Shown here in pieces: positions 1,886 to 16,044 of a stretch of DNA of 64,000 bases; positions within the stretch are counted from its first letter, which is position 1; every line of letters begins with the position of its first letter. The notes under the pieces were generated by a model, which was given only the letters and a program-made list of their open reading frames with translations, was not told the DNA's origin and searched no databases. The position numbers and the translations under genes are program-made. This DNA is from Pseudomonadota bacterium (GTDB lineage Bacteria > Pseudomonadota > Alphaproteobacteria > Sphingomonadales > CAKZYD01), in contig JBCCAR010000016.1 in the NCBI GenBank assembly GCA_039814715.1, forward strand, positions 12,030 to 76,029, given 5' to 3'.

Positions 1886-4528
1886 ATGACCCAGCAAACC
1901 GCGCAATTCATCAATGTCGGGGAGCGGACCAACGTCACCGGTTCGGCCAAGTTCAAAAAACTGATTTTAAATGATCAGTATGATGAGGCTTTGTCTGTTG
2001 CCCGCCAACAAGTGGAAAACGGCGCGCAGATCATTGATATCAACATGGATGAAGGGCTGCTCGACGCGGAAGCGGCCATGCAAACCTTCCTGCAGCTGAT
2101 TGCCGCTGAGCCGGATATTGCGCGCGTGCCGATCATGATTGATTCGTCCAAATGGACTGTCATTGAAGCTGGCCTGAAGTGCGTGACGGGGAAATCCATC
2201 GTCAACTCGATCTCCTTAAAAGAAGGCGAAGAGGCGTTTATTCAGCACGCTAAGCTATGCCTGCGCTATGGCGCTGCCGTTGTCGTCATGGCGTTTGATG
2301 AAGAAGGCCAAGCTGATACCGTTGAGCGCAAAGTCGACATCTGTGCGCGCGCTTATGACGTGCTGGTCAACACCGTCGGCTTTCCAGCCGAAGACATCAT
2401 TTTCGACCCCAATATCTTCGCCGTCGCAACGGGCATTGCCGAGCATAATCGCTACGGCCTTGATTTCATAGAAGCCACACGCGAGATCAAAGCGCGCTGC
2501 CCGCAGGCAAAAATCTCCGGCGGCGTGTCCAACGTGTCCTTCTCCTTTCGCGGCAACAATCCTGTGCGCGAGGCTATGCACTCGGTCTTCCTTTACCACG
2601 CTATTAAAGCGGGTATGGACATGGGCATCGTGAATGCCGGCCAGCTCACGATTTATGAGGACATCCCAAACGATCTGCGCGAGCGGGTTGAAGACGTCGT
2701 GTTAGCGCGGCGCGAGGATGCAACCGATCGCTTGCTTGAAATCGCGGAGAAATACCGCGGCGAGGGCGGCGCGCAGAAAAAAGTGCCAGACTTGAAATGG
2801 CGCGACGCACCGGTTGAAAAGCGCCTAGCGCACGCGCTGGTTCACGGCATTACCGATTTTGTAATCGATGATACAGAAGACGCCCGCCAAAGCGCGGAGA
2901 AGCCAATCCAAGTGATTGAAGGTCCGTTGATGGATGGCATGAACATCGTGGGTGATTTGTTTGGGTCAGGCAAAATGTTCTTGCCGCAGGTCGTCAAATC
3001 TGCGCGCGTCATGAAGCAATCCGTGGCGCACTTGATCCCCTTCATTGAAGAGGAAAAGCAGGGCGGGGAAAGCCAGGCCAAAGGCAAAATCGTGATGGCG
3101 ACGGTGAAAGGCGATGTGCACGACATCGGTAAAAACATCGTTGGCGTGGTTCTGCAGTGTAACAACTTTGAAGTCATTGACCTTGGCGTCATGGTTCCAG
3201 CGCAGAAAATTCTGGATGTAGCGGAAGAAGAAGGCGCTGACATTATTGGCTTGTCCGGTTTGATCACGCCCAGCCTCGATGAAATGGTGTTCGTGTCTGA
3301 AGAAATGCAGCGCCGCGATTTTAAATGCCCGCTGCTTATTGGCGGCGCAACAACCAGCAAGGTCCACACCGCGCTGCGCATTGAACCTAAATATGACCAC
3401 GCAACTGTGCATGTGCTGGATGCCAGCCGCGCGGTTGGTGTCGCCAGCAACTTGCTCAGCGATGAAGGCGCTGATGAATTCATTGATCAGGTCCGCAATG
3501 ATTATGACCAAATCCGCGCCAAACGCGATGGCGGCAAGGCGATCGTCCTAGCGCCTTATGAAGAAGCAGCTGCCAATGGCGCTGCATTGGATTGGAACGG
3601 CTATCAGCCGCCCCAGCCCAAGACCATAGGTGTGACAGTGATAGAAGACTATCCGCTCGGTAAGTTGGTGGACCGGATCGACTGGACGCCGTTCTTCCAA
3701 ACTTGGGAGCTGGCAGGGCAATACCCAGCCATCTTAGAAGATGATGTGGTCGGCGAAAGCGCGCGCGGCTTGAAGGCCGATGCTGACGCCATGCTGACCC
3801 AGATTGTCGATGAAAAGTGGCTCACGGCCAAAGCTGCCTATGGCTTCTGGCCCGCGAGTGCCCGCGGTGATGATCTGGTCGTGTGGGCTGATGAGAGCCG
3901 CAGCAAAGAGCTTGCTGTTCTGCCCATGCTGCGCCAGCAAATGCAGCGCAGGGCTGGGCGCGCCAACATGTCCCTGGCTGACTTTGTGGCGCCAGAGGAG
4001 AGCGGCGTTGCTGACTATATCGGCGGCTTTGCCGTCACCACGGGACACGGCATTGAAGAGCATATCGCTCGCTTTAAAGCCGCGCATGACGACTACAACG
4101 ACATTCTCCTGAAAGCGCTCTCAGACCGGCTCGCCGAGGCTTTTGCTGAAAAGCTCCATGAAGACGTGCGCAAAACCCATTGGGGCTACGCCGCCAGCGA
4201 AGAGCTCAGCAATGAAGCCCTGATCAAAGAAAAATACCAAGGCATCCGTCCGGCACCGGGCTATCCAGCCTGCCCAGATCATAGCCTGAAGCCAATTCTG
4301 TTCGACTTGCTGGGCGCTACCAAAGCGGCTGGGATTGAACTCACCGAAAGCTTCGCCATGACACCGACCGCTGCCGTCTCGGGCCTTTATTTCAGCCACC
4401 CAGACAGCCGCTATTTCGGTGTCGGCAAAATCGGTCCAGATCAAGTCGAAAGCTACGCCGCCCGCCGCGATGTCGATCTGGCTACGGCCACACGCTGGCT
4501 ACGGCCGAATTTGGGGTATGATGCTTAG
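1886..4528 (+). CDS. metH: Methionine synthase, pterin-binding + B12-binding + AdoMet-activation domains
   Basis: 880 aa. Contains a pterin-binding region ([12 protein letters not shown]...), the B12 motif 'GDVHDIGKN' (DxHxxG) and an AdoMet-activation C-terminus (PGYPACPDH). Confidence 0.9.
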
Positions 4529-4640: not shown

Positions 4641-5525
4641 CTAAAGTTTTGCGACCAAGGCAGAGTAATATTGGTTTCGCGGATCATCCAGTTTTTGTAT
4701 GTTTAGCGTGCTCAACAGCAAATTCATAAACGCTTCGTACACAACCCTTCGAGACAGGTTGATACGCTTTGTGCGATACAAAAACCAATGAAATACAAGC
4801 CTCGAAACGACTTTGCCAAAAAAAGACCGCACGCCACAAAGTGTGTGGTAAGTCGCTGCAGGTAGAATACCGGTTTGGAACGAGCCAATTGCCTTCGCAT
4901 TGGAAAGTAGAGTTTTGGTCCGAACAAAGGGCTCCTGATTTCCAGGTGTTGCAATTATGGACATTGGTTTAAGCCGATCAAATAATTTCTTATCATGCCC
5001 GATATACTTAAAATCTAACGCGCAAATGCGTTTGAGTTTGCGCGATAGTCTATCCCGGAAGGCGTGAAATTCATTCTCGATGACCTTGCGCTTATTCGTT
5101 GTAGCGAATAGAGAAAGCGCGGCTGTGAACTGGAAATCCAGGATAACGTCAGATTCCCAACTATAGCCATAGGTATAGAAAACTCTGGGGTGGTCAATTG
5201 CGAGGCCCCGGATGTCATCATAATCACGGTCCATTGCAACTAAAACATGTGATATGTCTTCTCGGATAATTTTCTCAGCCATAGGTCTAACAACTGATTT
5301 GCCACCGAGGCTTTTGCAGCGAACGGATAATCCACTTTCTGAAAGCACACGTTCCCAAAAGACTTCGTCTAAAGATGAACCTTCCCCGTCTATCTCTTTG
5401 CCCTCGCAATAGACCACAAAGTCTACGTCATAAAAGAGATGCTCGTTCTCGATTCCTTGATTCGACCTAGTGAACATCCGAAATACACTGCTCGATTCGT
5501 ATGACTCGGTCTTGAAAAGCGCCAA
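4641..5525 (-). CDS. DUF4435/Toprim-like putative nuclease (AriB-like partner of the upstream ATPase)
   Basis: 294-aa ORF in low-G+C DNA. It has 'FVVYCEGKE' (Glu41), then 'GGKS', then 'LVAMDRDYDD' (Asp99-x-Asp101), which is the Toprim-type acidic motif order. It overlaps the ATPase gene on the same strand. The start is uncertain (ATG 5525 or ATG 5477). Confidence 0.6.
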   Translation of the reverse strand: MALFKTESYESSSVFRMFTRSNQGIENEHLFYDVDFVVYCEGKEIDGEGSSLDEVFWERVLSESGLSVRCKSLGGKSVVRPMAEKIIREDISHVLVAMDRDYDDIRGLAIDHPRVFYTYGYSWESDVILDFQFTAALSLFATTNKRKVIENEFHAFRDRLSRKLKRICALDFKYIGHDKKLFDRLKPMSIIATPGNQEPFVRTKTLLSNAKAIGSFQTGILPAATYHTLCGVRSFFGKVVSRLVFHWFLYRTKRINLSRRVVYEAFMNLLLSTLNIQKLDDPRNQYYSALVAKL

Positions 5526-6753
5526 CTATATCTGGCGAGTGAGTAGCGGAGATTACCTGGCAGGATCCATTGAGGCTGCGGATGTTCTCAAATAGCGAAC
5601 TTTGCCAGCTTACATGCAGTGACAACTCAGGCTCGTCTGAGATAAAGACCACTGGACGCTCTTCCTGAAGTAACGCTTCACCTAACAGGATGAACAACTG
5701 CTTTTCACCTGAAGAAAACACGTTGATGTCTACTTTTTCGTCTGATGCAAGATGAACCTTTGGATTATTCCTTGCATCGAAATGAAGTTCTTTTCCAGAA
5801 AGGAGTTTGTTGATGATACGCTCGAATTGGATACGAGGTGCAAAGATCGCTTCACGCTTGGACTGAAGATCTCTCCATTCGTTGATCATCTCGCTCACAC
5901 GTCTTGCATCTGAAAGCGTGATCGCATCCTCTAATGTTAAAGACCTATTTTCTTCAAAACCTTTTTTGGCTTCATCAAGCCTAGAAAAGTGAGTGTTCAC
6001 GCTCTTTTTTGCCTTCGTGTTGCTTACGCCTAAGTCTCTGAGAACCCCCACTACCGTGCTTTTGTCTTCAGGTTCCGCTATGACTTGGCTAAGTACATCG
6101 CTACTGCCCCGGTTTTTATCCAAAAGAGAAAGAAAAACATGCTCTTGGAAGTTCTTGCTCTCGTCTTCAGCCTGCGAAGTCAAAAGAGAAAAGTACTGAG
6201 AAAAGGCTTGTGAGAGATGATTTATTTTCTGATCAACTGAAGACTGATATCCCTCTTCTCGACGATTTCGGCGTTCAATCTCCGAACTGGACCGATGAAT
6301 TGAGAGCCAGTTAACTTCGACCAAGTCGGCTAAGATTTTACTTAGCCTTGCACCTTCTTCCATGTATCGGCGAGATCGCGTGTATCTGTAATCTTTGTAT
6401 ATTCTTTCATCATATGGACCTTCAACACCGTAGGTGCGGCCTTTATCGCTAGATTTTTCTTTAACCGTGTATCGCAGTTCGAAACTGCCCATCTTCGTAT
6501 CAACAACTTTGGCTACTTCGATTACCGGTTTTCGGTTAGCGCCAATGGTTTTTAATCGGATCGTAACCTTCTCAAATTGGCCCGAGTAAAGAGCTGGAAT
6601 ATCAGCTCTCAATACTGCGGAGATGAGATTGATGATCGTTGTCTTGCCGCTTCCATTTGGCCCGATGAGGAAGTTCAGATCATCCCGGAGTTCTAAGGAT
6701 ACATTCTTTCGTCCCCAGAAACCCTCGATTTCGACGTGTTCTATGTAATTCAA
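5467..6753 (-). CDS. ABC/SMC-type ATPase with coiled-coil insert (AriA-like, AAA_15/AAA_21 type)
   Basis: 428 aa. Motifs: Walker A 'GPNGSGKTT' (aa 31-39), ABC signature-like 'SSGEKQ' (aa 347-352), Walker B/D-loop 'VVFISDEPELSLH' (aa 368-380) and H-loop 'ATHSPD'. A long charged insert lies between the halves. It uses a TTG start directly after an in-frame stop, and the DNA is low G+C. Confidence 0.75.
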   Translation of the reverse strand: MNYIEHVEIEGFWGRKNVSLELRDDLNFLIGPNGSGKTTIINLISAVLRADIPALYSGQFEKVTIRLKTIGANRKPVIEVAKVVDTKMGSFELRYTVKEKSSDKGRTYGVEGPYDERIYKDYRYTRSRRYMEEGARLSKILADLVEVNWLSIHRSSSEIERRNRREEGYQSSVDQKINHLSQAFSQYFSLLTSQAEDESKNFQEHVFLSLLDKNRGSSDVLSQVIAEPEDKSTVVGVLRDLGVSNTKAKKSVNTHFSRLDEAKKGFEENRSLTLEDAITLSDARRVSEMINEWRDLQSKREAIFAPRIQFERIINKLLSGKELHFDARNNPKVHLASDEKVDINVFSSGEKQLFILLGEALLQEERPVVFISDEPELSLHVSWQSSLFENIRSLNGSCQVISATHSPDIVGAFQDRVIRIEQCISDVH

Positions 6754-6960
6754 CTACTTGCTTTCACTTCAGGACGGCTAAGGATCTGCTCTTCTTTGTT
6801 GATCCTAGACCCGTGCCTGGTCGCTGGGCAACTCAAATCCCGGACGTAAAGCAGATTTGAAAACTCGACTGGCATAATAAAATTTAGCGATGCAAAATCT
6901 TGTGCAACCGCACCCAATGTCCCCAAGGTCCCAACCCCAGACGCTTCAACCAGCGTAGCT

Positions 6961-8739
6961 TTACGGATCATCTTTGACACTAATCGCATCTAGCACATTG
7001 TCAAAGCGGGTGAAGACGATGTCGCGTTTGGCGAAGATGTCGCCGGATCGCTGGGCCATGAGGCGGTCTTGATCGCGGACGCGAAATTCTTGGCCGATGG
7101 ATTCGACAACGTCCTCCTCGGTGTCCAGCAAGCGCAGGCCTTCAAGGCCAAGGCGGACGGAGGATTCAAAGGTTTCGCGAATAACAAAGTCTGCGCCAAG
7201 CTCAAGGAGTTCTAGGGCGTGAATGCGGTCATAGGCGCGCACTAAGATGCGCAGCTTGGGGAAGCTTGCACGCAGCATGGCGACCAATTTCTTGCACACA
7301 GCGCGATTGTTGATGGTGATGAAAATGAGCCCCGCGCTTTCAGCGCCTGCTGCGCGCAGGACATCCATGCGCGTGATATCGCCATAATAGACTTTGTTGC
7401 CAAACTTCTCGGCTGTGCGAATGCGCTCGGGGTCCATGTCAATGGCTGTCACTGCGATGCCGCGCGCCATCATCAGCTGGGTGACGATTTGCCCGATGCG
7501 GCCAAAGCCAGCGACAATCACATCTTTGCTTTCAGCGTGCTCAACGCCTTTCATGTCGTCTGGCACAGCTTCGGTCCGGGGGCGGGCAATAAAACGCTCA
7601 ACCGCCATGCCGATCAGCGGCGTCATCGCCATGGAGAGGGTGACGGAGGCCGTGAGGAGGCTGGCCTGCGCCTGCGACAACAGCATGGCGCCTTGAGCCG
7701 CAGTGAACAAAACGAAGGCGAATTCGCCGCCTTGGGGGAGGAGCCCTGCCACGCGCAGCGCCTCATCGCGCTCTGAGCCGAACACACGTGAAAGAAGATA
7801 CAAAATCAAAAATTTGACGGATAGGAGCGCGGCGACAATGAGCAGCACTTCAATCATCCGGCCAAAGACCAATGGCCAGTTAACAAGCATGCCCACCGAC
7901 ATGAAGAACAAGCTGAGGAGGAGGGCGCGAAAGGGCTCAATATCTGCTTCAATCTGGTGCCGGAATTCAGATTCAGCGAGCAGGACGCCGCCTAAAAAGG
8001 CGCCTAGGGCCATCGATAACCCCACTGCATCCATCAGCAAAGCGGCGCCAACCACCATGAGCAGCGCAGCAGCACCGAATACCTCGCGCGAGCCGGTGTT
8101 GGCCATCAACCGGAAGATAGGTTTAAGAATGAACCGCCCGCCAATAACGAAAGCCACCATGACGAAGATCATCTTGGCGATCTCAAGCCAATCAATCCCG
8201 GCCGTGTCGCTTGTGGGCGTTAAAAAGGCGACGAGGCCCAGCAGGGGGACAATGGCTAAATCTTGGAAGAGAAGGATGGAAAAGGCCCGCCGGCCATAGA
8301 CCGAGCTGCGCGCGCCGCGTTCATCCAGCAATTGGATGCCAAACGCGGTTGAAGATAGGGCGAGCGCGAAGCCAACAATCCAAGCGGTTGCCGAGCTGAG
8401 GCCAAACATCATGGTGATCCCGGCGATGACGAGGCCGGTGAGGACGACTTGGACCAAGCCGAGGCCAAAGATTTCGCTGCGCATGCGCCACAACCGGGCT
8501 GGATTAAGCTCCAGGCCAATGACAAATAGCAGCAACACAACGCCGAACTCGGCAACAGCAAGAATACTCTCGCCATCTGAAATGAGATTGAGCGCATGCG
8601 GCCCGATCAATGTGCCAGCGGCTAGATACCCTAAGATTGTTCCAAGACCGAGACGTTTAAAGATAGGCACAACGGCAACCGTCGCCGCTAGGAACACGCC
8701 AGCCGAGGCAAGTAGGTCTCCACCAGCGGCTGCCATCAA
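6961..8739 (-). CDS. kefB: Glutathione-regulated K+ efflux / CPA2 cation:proton antiporter with TrkA-N domain
   Basis: 592 aa. Multi-pass Na_H-exchanger-like N-terminus, then the Rossmann motif 'VIVAGFGRIGQ' (TrkA-N). The kefB versus kefC call is not resolvable by eye. Confidence 0.8.
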   Translation of the reverse strand: MMAAAGGDLLASAGVFLAATVAVVPIFKRLGLGTILGYLAAGTLIGPHALNLISDGESILAVAEFGVVLLLFVIGLELNPARLWRMRSEIFGLGLVQVVLTGLVIAGITMMFGLSSATAWIVGFALALSSTAFGIQLLDERGARSSVYGRRAFSILLFQDLAIVPLLGLVAFLTPTSDTAGIDWLEIAKMIFVMVAFVIGGRFILKPIFRLMANTGSREVFGAAALLMVVGAALLMDAVGLSMALGAFLGGVLLAESEFRHQIEADIEPFRALLLSLFFMSVGMLVNWPLVFGRMIEVLLIVAALLSVKFLILYLLSRVFGSERDEALRVAGLLPQGGEFAFVLFTAAQGAMLLSQAQASLLTASVTLSMAMTPLIGMAVERFIARPRTEAVPDDMKGVEHAESKDVIVAGFGRIGQIVTQLMMARGIAVTAIDMDPERIRTAEKFGNKVYYGDITRMDVLRAAGAESAGLIFITINNRAVCKKLVAMLRASFPKLRILVRAYDRIHALELLELGADFVIRETFESSVRLGLEGLRLLDTEEDVVESIGQEFRVRDQDRLMAQRSGDIFAKRDIVFTRFDNVLDAISVKDDP

Positions 8740-8797
8740 TTCCTCTCCTGTCGCGTGCGGCGCGTCGTAGCGCCGATGTCGGTATTTTTATAGCGGG

Positions 8798-9169
8798 CTA
8801 ACCAGCAACTGGGCCAGTATAAATGCAGCCTTCTTGGCAAGACCCACGCAAGACCTTCACCTGGCTCAAAAGTGGCAAGCGCGGATGAGTCTTCTGCCAA
8901 ATCCACATACAAATGTGTTCAAGTGTTGGCACGGTTAGGCCGTCAATTTCGTTTAGGTACTGATGATCGAGGGCGCCGCGAATGTCGGCGATGACCACAT
9001 CTATTTCTGCAAAATCGCACACCCAGCCAGTTTGCGCGTCTGGTTCGCCAGAAAACTGCAGTTCCACATCAAAGCTGTGCCCGTGCAGGCGGCTGTACTT
9101 GTGGCTATCGGGCACATTAGCGGCCAGTTGGTGCGCAGCGTCAAACTGAAACTGTTTTATCAGAAGCAT
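8798..9169 (-). CDS. queD: 6-carboxy-5,6,7,8-tetrahydropterin synthase
   Basis: 123 aa. 'FQFDAAHQL...RLHGHSFDVEL' matches the PTPS/QueD His-triad pattern. Confidence 0.8.
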   Translation of the reverse strand: MLLIKQFQFDAAHQLAANVPDSHKYSRLHGHSFDVELQFSGEPDAQTGWVCDFAEIDVVIADIRGALDHQYLNEIDGLTVPTLEHICMWIWQKTHPRLPLLSQVKVLRGSCQEGCIYTGPVAG

Positions 9170-9244
9170 GATGTTTTTACCAGATGCGGGCCAACGTGGC
9201 GTGCCGCGCGGACATGCCTTTCTAAGTCGGGTATTTCAAGTCCT

Positions 9245-9694
9245 TTATGCTGCAGGCGCTGCGGCTGCAGCCTTTTGCGCTATGTCTGTCATCGCCTGGA
9301 AGGGCAGGAGAATGGATGCATGCCGGCTCTTATACGTTTTGGCTGGCGCAAACACATGTGCGGCGCGGAAGGCGCGCGGCGGGTCTTGAACGTCGCCTTT
9401 TAAAAAAGCGGCCATATGCTCTGCTATGCTTGGAAAATCCTCGAGCGGCAGGCCGATCGCTTGCGCGCCCATAATCGAGGCTGCTGCTTGGCCCAGCGCG
9501 CATGCCCTGACGGCTTGGCCGTAGTCGCTGACGATCCCGTCTGTGATCTTGATATCCACATCCACGCGGCTGCCGCAGATGGGGCTGACTTTACGCGCGT
9601 GATAGTCCGGCGCATCAAGCCGGTCCAGGCGCGGCACGTCCGCTGCTAGGCGCAGAATGTCAGTCGTGTATAAGGCGTCAGTCATACCGGTCAA
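9245..9694 (-). CDS. NifU/IscU-like iron-sulfur cluster scaffold family protein
   Basis: 149 aa. 'SPICGSRVDVDI' and 'VRACALGQAAASIM' are Cys motifs resembling SufU/IscU-like scaffolds. Confidence 0.55.
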   Translation of the reverse strand: MTGMTDALYTTDILRLAADVPRLDRLDAPDYHARKVSPICGSRVDVDIKITDGIVSDYGQAVRACALGQAAASIMGAQAIGLPLEDFPSIAEHMAAFLKGDVQDPPRAFRAAHVFAPAKTYKSRHASILLPFQAMTDIAQKAAAAAPAA

Positions 9695-12745: not shown

Positions 12746-13024
12746 TCAGCTTTCATCGAGAATCAAATACAAAGTCTGCGCTTCTGCCGCTGGCCCGCGG
12801 CGCGCGCCTAAGGCCAATAGTTGTGCGACTTTCACATGGCGGCCAATGGTCACCGTTAAGACGTCCCCCACGCGGACGCTGGCGCTCGCGCGGCTTAATT
12901 TCCGCCCATTCACGCGAACGCGCCCAGCGCTCACCGCTTGGGCGGCGATACTCCGGCTCTTAAAAAAGCGCGCATACCATAACCATTTATCGGCCCGCAG
13001 ATATGGCTCTTGGCCGGGGGTCAT
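12746..13024 (-). CDS. S4-domain RNA-binding protein (Hsp15/HslR-like)
   Basis: 92 aa. The 'LRADKWLWYARFFKSRSIAAQAV..GRVRVNG' S4 motif is present. Its start overlaps the helicase stop by 4 nt. Confidence 0.75.
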   Translation of the reverse strand: MTPGQEPYLRADKWLWYARFFKSRSIAAQAVSAGRVRVNGRKLSRASASVRVGDVLTVTIGRHVKVAQLLALGARRGPAAEAQTLYLILDES

Positions 13025-16000
13025 TTCTGCTTGAGTTTTTCCTTAAGCCCGGCAAGCGCCGCAAAGGGGCTGTCTGGATTAATCTCTTTGCCGCGCCCAC
13101 CTTTAGGTTGCCTGGAGAACGATTTTGGGCCTTGGCCCCCTTTGTTGCGCGGCCCTTTGCCTTTATGGCTGCCTTGTTTCACATCGTCGCCAGACTGCTG
13201 ACGCCGGTTCTTGTGGTGTTGTGGCCGCTTTTTGGCGCGCATATCCCACTGGTAGACGGCAATCATCGTGGGCTCAGCATCCTCAGCTTTGTCTGGGATT
13301 TCTTGAGGCGTTTCTGCGGTTGCTTCTGGCGGGTGCTCTTGTGCGTCGGCAACGGCCTCTAAAGGTGCCGGTTCAGTGCTAGGCGCAGGCGCGCTTTCTG
13401 GTTTTTGGTCAGGCTCGTTTGCCAGTGTGTCAGCAGCGACGCTTTGTGCTGCTGGTGCCTCATCGCTGGGCGCTTGCACTGGCTGCGTCTCGGTCTGCGG
13501 CGCTGCCTTGGCCGCTTCTGCCGCTGCTTTTTCAGCAACGTGTGCGTCCCAGGCAGTCTTTTCCATGGCCTCGCTGCGATAGCCCAGTGCGCGCATAACG
13601 CCTTCAAAGTCTGTACCGGAAGCCCCAACATAGCCCATCAAATCCGGCGATACGGTAAAGCGCGCGCTGTTCAAGCCTAAGGGGCGCACTGCATCTGCTA
13701 AGCGCTCAAACATATCAATGCGCACGGCGTGGGCGCCGATGGGGCGAAAGCCAGCGACGCGGTAAAACGCGGTATCAATATCGCGCTCCATGGTGATCCA
13801 GACCAAGCCAGGCGTTGGCCGTGCGACCACGGGGACGGTCTTATCTTGGCCGAGCGCCCACAGCATGAGGCGCAGGTCTGTTGCGGCCGGCTTAAGCAGC
13901 AGCGGGATGAAGACATGTGTTGACCCGAAACGGATTTTAAATTGGCGCAGCCCCCGGCGGGCCACTTGGTCTAGCGCGCGCACTTCCTTATCGACTGCGC
14001 TGCGCGGCATTACGCCCAGATTTTCAACGAGCTGATAGGCCACTGCCCGGGCTTGCCCGCCCATGGCAACGTCCGCACTGTTCTTGGAGGCCGCCTTCAG
14101 CACGTCTCGCAGCTGTACGAGTGGCTGCAGAAGCTCCTCGATTTGCGCCGTGAGATATGTGTTCAGCCGCTCTAAAACGATATCGGCTGCTTGCCCATCA
14201 AGCATCGCACCATTGAGCAGCTTCGCATGCGCGCTCAGCGCTTCGTCAGAGCCTTGAACACTGGCAACGCTGGCGCCGCGCCATTTGATTTGCGGGCTTG
14301 AGAAACCGCGGGAGAAATCCAGCGAGAACTCTCCATCCTTTGCCGCTTTGAGTTCTAGGGCGCGGCGGTCTAACTCCTGGCGCAGCGCTTTATCAGCAGC
14401 AGCGCGCAGCATTTTTTGTTCATCGCGCGGCGCGGCGGCATCCACAGAGAAGTTGAAGCCCTTTAAGGTCCCAATCTGATGGCCTTCCACGACGATCTCG
14501 TCCTGGCCTGGCGCAGCGTTTTCAATATCGACCATCAGGTCACCTTTTTCCTTCAATTGCCGCAGCAAAATACTCGTGCGCTTGTCAACAAAGCGTTGCG
14601 TTAACCGCTCATGTAGCTGATCCGATAGCCTATCTTCAATGGCGCGTGTCATTTCTGACCAGAACAGAGCATTTTCCAACCAGTTTGGACGGTTGGCGAT
14701 GAAGGTCCAAATGCGGATGGCAGAGATGCGCTGGGCCAAGGTATCAATGTCGCCTTGGATATTGTCCAAGCGGTCAATCTGGGCATGTAGCCAGCGGTCC
14801 GGCAGGCGCATATCATTCTTGAGAAGGTGGGTGAAAATCTGCCCCAAAAGCCGCGCATGGACATTGCCTGCCAGTTTGCGAAAGTCCGGCACTTGGCAGA
14901 CATCCCATAACAGCTTCACGCGCTCTGGACTGTCGGCCAAGGCGGCAATGGCGGTGTCTGATGAGAGGGCTTTGAGCATCGCGACATCGCTGGCGAAGCG
15001 GGCGCGCAAAAACACCTCTTTTTCCGGCGGCATTTCCAGGCTGCCGATCAGCGCTTCAAGCGAGCGAAAGTCTGGGTTTGGCGCCCGCCAAAATATCTTT
15101 TTGATGGCCGGGAATTGGTGGCCCTCGACCGCTTCAATCTCGCCTTCAGAAAACCGCGCGCTGCGCTCTTCCATGCGCAGCAGCGAGGTAAAGGCCCCGT
15201 CAGACATATGCCTACCTGCGCGCCCAGCAATTTGGGCGATTTCAGCGTTCGTTAAATCCCGCATTTTGCGGCCATCGAACTTGCGGCGGCTGGCGAACAC
15301 CACGGTATCAATATCCATGTTCAGGCCCATGCCAATGGCATCTGTTGCGACCAGAAAATCCACATCGCCATTTTGGTATAGCTCGACTTGCGCGTTGCGC
15401 GTCCTTGGTGAAAGCGCCCCCATAACAATCGCGCAGCCACCGCGCTGGCGTCGCAGCAATTCGGCATGAGCATAGACATCTTCTATCGAAAACGCGACCA
15501 AAGCCGTTCGCCGGGGCATGCGGCTCAGCTTCTTCGGCGAGACATAGCGCAGTTGGGAAAAGCGTTCTCGGCTGACAATCTCCGCCTTTGGGATGAGCGC
15601 AGAGACCAGCGGCTTCATGGTCCCCGCGCCCATGAGCATCGTCTCTTCCGTGCCGCGCATATGCAGCATCCGGTCGGTAAACACATGGCCGCGCTCGGGG
15701 TCAGCGGCCATCTGAATTTCATCAATCCCGACAAAGGCAAAGTCGCGCCCGCCTAGATTTTTGCCAAGCCCCGCGCTGCGCGGCATGGATTCCGCTGTGC
15801 AAAGAAAATAATCGGCAAAGGGGGGAATAATCTTCTCCTCCCCCGTCATCAGCGCCACGCGCTCAGGCCCTTTCATGGCCACAACCCGGTCATACACCTC
15901 CCGCGCCAGCAATCTCAGCGGAAAGCCCATCACGCCAGACGCATGGCCCAGCATGCGCTCAACCGCTAAATGCGTTTTGCCGGTGTTGGTGGGCCCAAGC

Positions 16001-16044
16001 ACAGCCGTAACCTGGCCGCGGCGGGCCTGCGTGGATATCTGCAT
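13021..16044 (-). CDS. Superfamily-2 ATP-dependent helicase (Suv3-like) with long disordered C-terminal tail
   Basis: 1007 aa. Motifs: P-loop 'GPTNTGKTH', DExx 'GIDEIQ', 'ATDAIGMGLN' and 'QIAGRAGR'. The last ~170 aa are a Pro/Ala/Glu-rich linker followed by a Lys/Arg/Gly-rich tail. Confidence 0.8.
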   Translation of the reverse strand: MQISTQARRGQVTAVLGPTNTGKTHLAVERMLGHASGVMGFPLRLLAREVYDRVVAMKGPERVALMTGEEKIIPPFADYFLCTAESMPRSAGLGKNLGGRDFAFVGIDEIQMAADPERGHVFTDRMLHMRGTEETMLMGAGTMKPLVSALIPKAEIVSRERFSQLRYVSPKKLSRMPRRTALVAFSIEDVYAHAELLRRQRGGCAIVMGALSPRTRNAQVELYQNGDVDFLVATDAIGMGLNMDIDTVVFASRRKFDGRKMRDLTNAEIAQIAGRAGRHMSDGAFTSLLRMEERSARFSEGEIEAVEGHQFPAIKKIFWRAPNPDFRSLEALIGSLEMPPEKEVFLRARFASDVAMLKALSSDTAIAALADSPERVKLLWDVCQVPDFRKLAGNVHARLLGQIFTHLLKNDMRLPDRWLHAQIDRLDNIQGDIDTLAQRISAIRIWTFIANRPNWLENALFWSEMTRAIEDRLSDQLHERLTQRFVDKRTSILLRQLKEKGDLMVDIENAAPGQDEIVVEGHQIGTLKGFNFSVDAAAPRDEQKMLRAAADKALRQELDRRALELKAAKDGEFSLDFSRGFSSPQIKWRGASVASVQGSDEALSAHAKLLNGAMLDGQAADIVLERLNTYLTAQIEELLQPLVQLRDVLKAASKNSADVAMGGQARAVAYQLVENLGVMPRSAVDKEVRALDQVARRGLRQFKIRFGSTHVFIPLLLKPAATDLRLMLWALGQDKTVPVVARPTPGLVWITMERDIDTAFYRVAGFRPIGAHAVRIDMFERLADAVRPLGLNSARFTVSPDLMGYVGASGTDFEGVMRALGYRSEAMEKTAWDAHVAEKAAAEAAKAAPQTETQPVQAPSDEAPAAQSVAADTLANEPDQKPESAPAPSTEPAPLEAVADAQEHPPEATAETPQEIPDKAEDAEPTMIAVYQWDMRAKKRPQHHKNRRQQSGDDVKQGSHKGKGPRNKGGQGPKSFSRQPKGGRGKEINPDSPFAALAGLKEKLKQK

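Follow-up and report, generated by a model that had tools for sequence, protein, structure and literature searches.

The window analysed here is a stretch of 64,000 nucleotides (nt) from contig JBCCAR010000016.1 of a Pseudomonadota bacterium (order Sphingomonadales), and the subject of this work is a pair of overlapping genes on its minus strand, which we call ariA and ariB. The first gene, ariA (5467..6753), starts with TTG and encodes a 428-residue ATPase of the ABC/SMC type (AAA_15/AAA_21) that contains a helical coiled-coil insert. The second, ariB (4641..5477), encodes a 278-residue DUF4435 protein that begins with a Toprim domain and ends with a domain made up entirely of helices. On the 5' side of ariA lies a leader on the same strand (6754..6831) with what we infer to be a promoter. 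Leader and genes form a cassette (4645..6831, with no strand of its own) that is delimited by nucleotide homology to relatives and by low guanine-plus-cytosine (GC) content. With a probability of roughly 80%, this pair is a PARIS-family (AriA/AriB) abortive-infection anti-phage cassette that was acquired by horizontal transfer.

The open reading frame (ORF) listing contains a longer version of ariB (4641..5525, minus strand), which opens at a TTG at 5525 and would yield 294 residues. This was the version described in an earlier, sequence-only reading of this DNA. Since the called product of the window is a 278-residue protein beginning MFTRS, as it is in most homologues, the true start is probably the ATG at 5477. 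The Toprim motifs and the same-strand overlap given in that reading hold, whereas the length and the start of the protein probably do not. Of the residues it had singled out for mutation, K37 of the ATPase keeps its number, and E41, D99, and D101 of the Toprim protein become E25, D83, and D85 in the 278-residue numbering. When counted from the ATG, the stop of ariA and the start of ariB overlap by 11 nt (5467..5477, minus strand; ATGTTCACTAG), rather than by the 59 nt that would result from use of the TTG. The overlap of the ariA stop with the ariB start suggests that the two genes are translationally coupled. In close relatives, the ariA ORF also ends 11 nt past the ariB start, and the TTG start of ariA is kept; in distant relatives, the two genes typically overlap by about 4 nt or abut.

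PARIS has been reported in 5.2% of prokaryotic genomes (PMC9122126); it has been split into 11 clades and classed as OLD class 4 (PMC11464382). The rule for its detection calls for adjacent genes that score at least 32 bits with AAA_15 or at least 27 bits with AAA_21, together with at least 27 bits with DUF4435 (Rousset 2022, PMC9122126). In the window, the ATPase scores 89.4 bits with AAA_15 (E 4.9e-25) and 70 bits with AAA_21 (E 4.9e-19), and its partner scores 34.4 bits with DUF4435 (PF14491; E 2.5e-08; curated cutoff 27). The genes are adjacent and co-oriented, with the ATPase first, and current tools would call the pair PARIS. Among the PADLOC models, the best match of the ariA product is AriA (PDLC04164, 1.1e-42), and the ariB product matches AriB models only (PDLC02983, 7.6e-11). 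AriB models recognise the wider family as well, PDLC02983 matching 48 and PDLC04165 matching 29 of its 58 members. The AriA/AriB architecture that had been proposed from the sequence is consequently borne out by the detection scores and by the ranking of AriA in the PADLOC, PDB, and Foldseek searches, where it leads PtuA, GajA, AbiLi, and OLD by many orders of magnitude in each case.

AriA has the ordered motifs that were first read from its sequence: a Walker A motif GPNGSGKTT (residues 31-39), a signature SSGEKQ (347-352), a Walker B motif VVFISDEPE (368-376), and an H-loop ATHSPD (403-408). In an alignment with 31 homologues that are 38-86% identical, positions 31, 33, 34, 36-39, 347-352, 373-376, and 403-408 are the same in every protein; the Walker A lysine K37, the Walker B glutamate E374, and the signature and H-loop residues are therefore all intact and invariant. 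The likeness to known proteins had been thought to be limited to such motifs, which does not hold for AriA. A phmmer search of PDB sequences retrieves E. coli AriA (8ux9_B/8v45/8v46) as the best match (E 4.6e-21), aligned over residues 4-421 against 6-440, and the next-best match is the 'AAA family ATPase' 9n69 of a retron IA complex (9e-11). By BLASTP, the identity to E. coli AriA is 26% over the full length (E 3e-24). In the AlphaFold2 model of AriA (predicted local distance difference test, pLDDT, 83), the ABC head is split and bears a long helical insert. When this model was compared with the PDB by Foldseek, AriA chains took all of the first 15 places (E values from 2.6e-20 to 1.7e-14; TM-scores mostly 0.6-0.7), and chain 9n69_C of the retron-IA complex came next (3e-12). 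Judged by these comparisons of sequence, AriA is homologous over its entire length to the ABC ATPase AriA whose structure was solved from E. coli. The published phenotypes of E. coli AriA K39A and E393A indicate that the Walker A lysine and the Walker B glutamate are needed for defence; the corresponding residues here are K37 and E374.

Two arginine-rich loops of low confidence, at about residues 117-135 and 152-167, are present in the AlphaFold2 model. At each of the positions R117, K/R120, R126, and R128, a basic residue is found in 21-27 of the 31 homologues, and at R154 in all 31. In the HMMER alignment, these loops adjoin R116 and R119, the pore residues of E. coli AriA that have been reported to bind the acidic trigger Ocr. 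The arginines are not positionally conserved, in agreement with the published finding that the trigger-binding pore residues of AriA differ between PARIS clades (PMC11464382).

The ATPase also matches other members of the AAA_15/21 superfamily, including the PADLOC models PtuA (1.1e-24), mad3, GajA (2.5e-15), and AbiLi (4.9e-13) as well as PtuA structures in the PDB. On this basis, the pair could be assigned to another ATPase-nuclease family, namely class 1 OLD, Gabija, AbiL, or Septu/retron PtuAB, and a relative of OLD, AbiL, or Gabija had indeed been considered in the sequence-only reading. However, AriA models score at least 18 orders of magnitude better, the ATPase and the Toprim domain are in separate genes, and no helicase, reverse transcriptase, or noncoding RNA accompanies them. 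The partner has no match to AbiLii, PtuB/HNH, GajB/UvrD, or Toprim_OLD. Given this ranking and the identity of the partner, membership in another such family is very unlikely.

Each of these families shares something with the pair in the window. OLD proteins (P2 Old in class 1, Gabija GajA in class 2) and AbiL also employ an ABC ATPase along with a Toprim nuclease in phage defence. In OLD and GajA, unlike here, the ATPase and Toprim parts are fused. A Gabija assignment fails since GajA requires the GajB helicase, no helicase is adjacent to ariAB, and the GajA score (2.5e-15) compares poorly with that of AriA (1.1e-42). Class 1 OLD was set aside given the two genes and the lack of a PF20469 match, and the OLD structure 6p74 matches only the P-loop region (E 9e-05). 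In the case of AbiL, the AbiLi score is far below that of AriA and AbiLii is missing. The PtuA/PtuB pair of Septu and retrons (9N69, 9KJX, 8EE4) likewise has an ABC ATPase of the AAA_15/21 type that contains a coiled-coil insert and serves a nuclease as its sensor or scaffold, but PtuB is an HNH nuclease, with or without a retron reverse transcriptase and msDNA, rather than a Toprim DUF4435 protein; a reverse transcriptase ORF and a significant Rfam match are both lacking at the locus.

AriB contains the motifs VVYCEGKE, GGK, and VAMDRDYDD, and its Toprim residues are E25, D83, D85, E108, and D110. Within the family alignment, E25 (of CEG), D37, G58, D83 and D85 (of DRD), G104-Y105, E108 and D110 (of GYSWESD), D155, and R168 are invariant, and K60 (at least 90%), S106, and W107 are nearly so. 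E25, D83, and E108 are invariant in both of the family alignments that were made, and D85 is invariant in one (A1) and present in at least 90% of the other (A4). The AlphaFold2 model (pLDDT 94.3) has the beta-alpha-beta-alpha-beta-alpha-beta order of a Toprim fold followed by an all-helical domain; E25 comes behind the first strand and DRD behind the third. Together, these features identify AriB, at the level of sequence and predicted fold, as a Toprim protein of the DUF4435 family in which the acidic residues for metal binding are intact.

The relationship of this protein to the solved E. coli AriB emerges only when family profiles are compared. The profile was widened with distant members from an exhaustive hidden Markov model (HMM) search (1,133 clusters at E<=1e-3, 421 at E<=1e-30), and hhalign then aligned it to an E. 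coli-type AriB profile with a probability of 92.5% (E 4.9e-07) over 203 columns. The alignment extends across the Toprim domain and through the greater part of the helical one, as far as column 242 of 278, and holds CEG/VEG, DRD/DRE, and GYSWE/GHSLE in register. In this alignment, E25, D83, D85, and E108 correspond to E26, D88, E90, and E122, the published catalytic residues of E. coli AriB. D37, which is invariant and follows a 10-residue insertion, would be the equivalent of E. coli D30. RNase M5 has been reported to resemble the catalytic site of AriB most closely in structure (PMC12409363), and it also has a two-metal Toprim active site; RNase M5 is, in contrast, a monomeric rRNA-maturation enzyme without an ATPase partner, and it was recovered by none of the searches made here.

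Several results count against the assignment to PARIS, and most of them concern AriB. The Pfam match spans only the Toprim part of the protein (positions 10-145 of 238 in the DUF4435 profile). Pairwise comparison of AriB with E. coli AriB finds no similarity. Neither phmmer with AriB nor profiles built from 29 and 58 sequences retrieved 8ux9_A from the PDB sequences, the profiles failing even at E<=10; a control with Pseudoalteromonas AriB confirmed that 8ux9_A is in the library. Foldseek searches of the PDB and BFVD with the AriB model found nothing below E 0.01. The narrower, close-family profile aligned to the E. coli-type profile with an E of only 0.055, with three motifs in register. In addition, the pair has neither a defence island nor mobile-element genes as neighbours in the window itself.

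The faint Foldseek matches of the AriB model are of the Toprim type only (the OLD C-terminal region, the DnaG TOPRIM domain, and RloB). In the current copy of Pfam, the type E. coli AriB (P0204) and its Pseudoalteromonas homologue (P0227) have no match to DUF4435 (PF14491) at E<=1; thus, the AriB of the window is, if anything, nearer the centre of that family. Both are nevertheless annotated as DUF4435 domain proteins, P0204 by NCBI and P0227 by UniRef. AriB is very divergent, a possibility that the sequence-only reading had allowed for, and it is tied to the solved E. coli AriB by profile-profile comparison only.

The known system closest to the pair is PARIS of E. coli B185, which is carried by a P4-like satellite (8UX9, 8V45-8V49) and whose AriA is the best match to the ATPase in both sequence and structure. 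Both consist of two co-oriented, overlapping genes, an ABC ATPase followed by a DUF4435 Toprim protein of about 280-310 residues; the acidic motifs of AriB occur in the same order (E25/E26, D83/D88, D85/E90, E108/E122) and precede a helical C-terminal domain; and both systems are mobile, with relatives in defence contexts. There are also differences. AriA of the window is 36 residues shorter and conserves an arginine-rich loop at residues 117-129 instead of R116/R119. Its AriB has the 10-residue insertion after the catalytic glutamate, and its second and third motifs are DRD(Y)D and GYSWESD rather than DRE and GHSLEN. The host has an alphaproteobacterium-like marine genome, in which the cassette stands alone between housekeeping genes and not at a satellite hotspot.

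The E. coli homologue is a bona fide defence system (PMC9122126, PMC11464382), and a mechanism may be proposed by analogy with it (PMC11464382, PMC12409363). In PARIS, a hexamer of AriA holds three AriB molecules until a phage trigger such as Ocr frees them. By analogy, AriA here would oligomerise and form the scaffold on which AriB is kept sequestered and inactive. Binding of a phage protein to the basic loops of AriA would then release AriB in an ATP-dependent step. Since the arginine-rich loop 117-129 of AriA is conserved, the trigger is probably acidic or a DNA mimic. Once released, AriB would dimerise through its helical domain and cut host RNA, most likely specific tRNAs, so that translation would stop and the infection would be aborted. 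Because AriB is connected to the solved protein by profiles alone, we infer both the trigger and the nuclease target.

This leaves room for a variant in which the architecture is that of PARIS, with AriA sequestering and releasing AriB, but AriB cuts DNA or an RNA other than tRNA-Lys, tRNA-Thr, or tRNA-Asn, and the trigger is not an anti-restriction protein of the Ocr type. Other Toprim nucleases in defence, OLD and Gabija among them, have DNA as their substrate. The AriB of the window is related to that of E. coli at the profile-profile level only, with no Foldseek link to 8ux9_A; the residues K60, K64, R28, and R236, through which the E. coli protein contacts tRNA (PMC12409363), have no secure one-to-one counterparts; and pore residues vary between clades (PMC11464382). 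Yet the Toprim acidic set and the conserved basic residue after beta2 (K60) do align with AriB, as does the C-terminal helical domain up to column 242 of 278, and an arginine-rich AriA loop would fit an acidic trigger such as Ocr. A different chemistry or trigger for the pair seems, on balance, rather doubtful. It is slightly more probable, although still less likely than not, that the AriB clade with the motif 'GYSWE[SN]D' is a functionally distinct branch of PARIS, whose effector may cut something else than the tRNAs attacked in E. coli and in which the conserved arginine-rich loop of AriA may sense another class of phage protein. The clade comprises about 1,100 clusters at 50% identity, from Alphaproteobacteria, Bacteroidota, Acidobacteriota, and others.

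The assignment of the pair to PARIS also draws on its relatives. A scan of genomes found 59 loci in Alpha- and Gammaproteobacteria, Bacteroidota, Acidobacteriota, and others. In all 56 genome loci with upstream sequence and in all 14 IMG/VR viral contigs, the gene immediately 5' of ariB on the same strand encodes an AriA homologue (70 of 70 testable loci overall); the pairing is strictly conserved. PHROG families exist for AriA and AriB alike. A nucleotide search of plasmids and a protein search of cultured phages gave no match. Either ariA or ariB is split into two ORFs at 5 of the 56 genome loci (L016, L026, L037, L049, and L062), which could represent decaying copies or errors in the assembly of metagenome-assembled genomes (MAGs).

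The cassette has the marks of foreign DNA. Its GC content (4645-6831) is 44.7%, compared with 55.6 +/- 1.7% in all other windows of equal length (z = -6.3), and it is the sole GC trough in the 64 kb. At 53 of 54 loci, the cassette has a higher AT content than the DNA that flanks it, with a mean difference of 12 points. Nucleotide homology to the cassettes of Paracoccus and Pseudoprimorskyibacter is confined to 4645-6831, that is, to the two genes and the leader of about 80 nt. In the window, the cassette is located between two genes whose 3' ends converge, metH (stop at 4528) and a gene for a CPA2 cation/proton antiporter (stop at about 6960-6961). The flanking genes are housekeeping genes: metF, a split metH, the CPA2 antiporter gene, PTPS, NifU-like, an RpoH-like sigma factor, CarD, and a Suv3-like helicase. 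The islet has no integrase, tRNA, or convincing flanking repeat, and its earlier description as bare is upheld by this and by the confinement of the shared sequence to the cassette.

The same arrangement is present in metagenome SRR22824269 (L065), where it was found with the ATG-start antiporter protein. In the search for an empty site, exact-protein look-ups of metH and of the TTG-start antiporter gave no match. A related MAG (L080; 75% identical, 6926-9263), whose KefB-like CPA2 antiporter protein is at least 90% identical, has hisI-fur-cysS after the antiporter gene and no ariAB there. Its homology to the window ends exactly at the antiporter stop codon, although the region is too rearranged to provide a clean empty site. 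A second contig of SRR22824269 (L081; 81% identical) also ends exactly at that stop. Because L081 ends there and hisI-fur-cysS follows in L080, synteny seems to break at the 3' end of the antiporter gene. With hisI-fur-cysS in place of ariAB beside so similar an antiporter gene, ariAB is probably not ancestral at this site, and the cassette was probably acquired by horizontal transfer.

These observations also bear on the idea that AriA and AriB are a housekeeping pair for DNA repair or chromosome maintenance, an ATPase like RecF, RecN, or SMC working with a Toprim protein. Weak matches of the P-loop region to SMC_N, RecF, and Rad50 would agree with such a role, but they are confined to about 45-65 N-terminal residues. 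The pair is sporadic across phyla and has unrelated neighbours, its composition is foreign at 53 of 54 loci, and it is missing beside the antiporter gene of the relative just described. A housekeeping function is thus extremely unlikely.

The neighbours of ariAB are not conserved between loci. They often include integrases, type I restriction-modification (R-M), or other defence genes, and some loci are in viral contigs. In Pseudoprimorskyibacter (L001), the order is integrase-ariAB-resolvase-ParB_N, and in Paracoccus (L002), integrase/resolvase-ariAB-ParDE. In Thalassobius sp. Cn5-15 (L003, the same as L007; 2718-10837), ariAB is within a P4-like int-AlpA-AAA_25 integrative element. In a gammaproteobacterial MAG (L004, the same as L011; 1-10837), the order is AbiTii-hsdM-Fic-hsdS-hsdR-ariAB. 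At 27 loci, 150 flanking ORFs were compared with Pfam, and the family that occurs most often is Phage_integrase, with 6 ORFs; among the neighbours, PADLOC identifies type I R-M, PD-Lambda-1, AbiEi, SduA, and mad2.

Two of these loci have features of their own. At L003, an 80-residue HTH_3 gene, present at no other examined locus, overlaps the start of ariA by 4 nt and may encode a regulator. At L004, ariAB is directly 3' of a type I R-M operon with an embedded Fic gene and with AbiTii upstream; this neighbourhood is suggestive of an 'anti-anti-restriction' system.

Some of the same evidence might be taken to mean that the pair is a selfish module of the toxin-antitoxin type, which stabilises itself or a mobile element by addiction and does not truly sense phage. 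The PDB entries 8v45-49 were deposited with AriA as 'AriA antitoxin', the Paracoccus cassette adjoins a ParDE pair, the cassette moves as a minimal 2.2-kb unit, and the split ORFs at 5 of 56 genome loci suggest frequent decay. However, the characterised homologue acts in defence, relatives adjoin R-M and other defence genes and occur in viral contigs, and defence and addiction roles are compatible with each other. An addiction module without phage sensing is consequently improbable, and a PARIS-family defence cassette remains the preferred reading.

Outside the two genes, the only noncoding DNA common to the cassettes of the window, Paracoccus (L002), and Pseudoprimorskyibacter (L001) is the 6754-6831 leader. 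A simple scan of the locus for sigma-70 promoters and terminators gave nothing useful, and an Rfam scan of the islet gave a single chance-level match (E 0.69), far below the gathering score. A 79-residue ORF (6750-6989, minus strand) ends in TTGA, through which it overlaps the start of ariA, and it also extends into the antiporter gene at the 3' end of the latter; the copy in metagenome contig L065 carries a called gene of 73 residues here. It was considered as a third gene of the system, and since it has no Pfam match and no counterpart 5' of ariA in relatives, it is probably spurious. A 16-nt inverted repeat (4615-4630/6946-6961, 81% complementary) brackets the islet beyond the ariB stop and at the antiporter stop. 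This repeat and other short repeats around the islet are probably due to chance.

Two of the flanking genes are unusual in structure. Methionine synthase is split on the plus strand into an ORF of 396 residues with the homocysteine S-methyltransferase domain (679-1869) and one of 880 residues with the pterin-binding, B12-binding, and activation domains (1886-4528), with metF just upstream (47-814). The Suv3-like DEXQ-box helicase (13021-16044, minus strand; 1007 residues) has a long C-terminal tail of low complexity, in which an acidic stretch rich in Ala, Pro, and Glu is followed by a basic end rich in Lys, Gly, and Gln.

With these findings, a marine alphaproteobacterial chromosome gains a PARIS cassette whose annotation is secure. 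They also indicate that PARIS can travel as a bare, two-gene unit of 2.2 kb and settle between convergent housekeeping genes without an integrase, a tRNA site, or repeats. Because the type AriB has no Pfam DUF4435 match at E<=1 and the divergent clade does have one, sequence searches seeded with the solved AriB miss a large branch of the family. If tested, this clade would show whether tRNA targeting and the sensing of anti-restriction proteins hold across PARIS, and the cassette itself would provide a natural system for the study of interactions between roseophages and their hosts.

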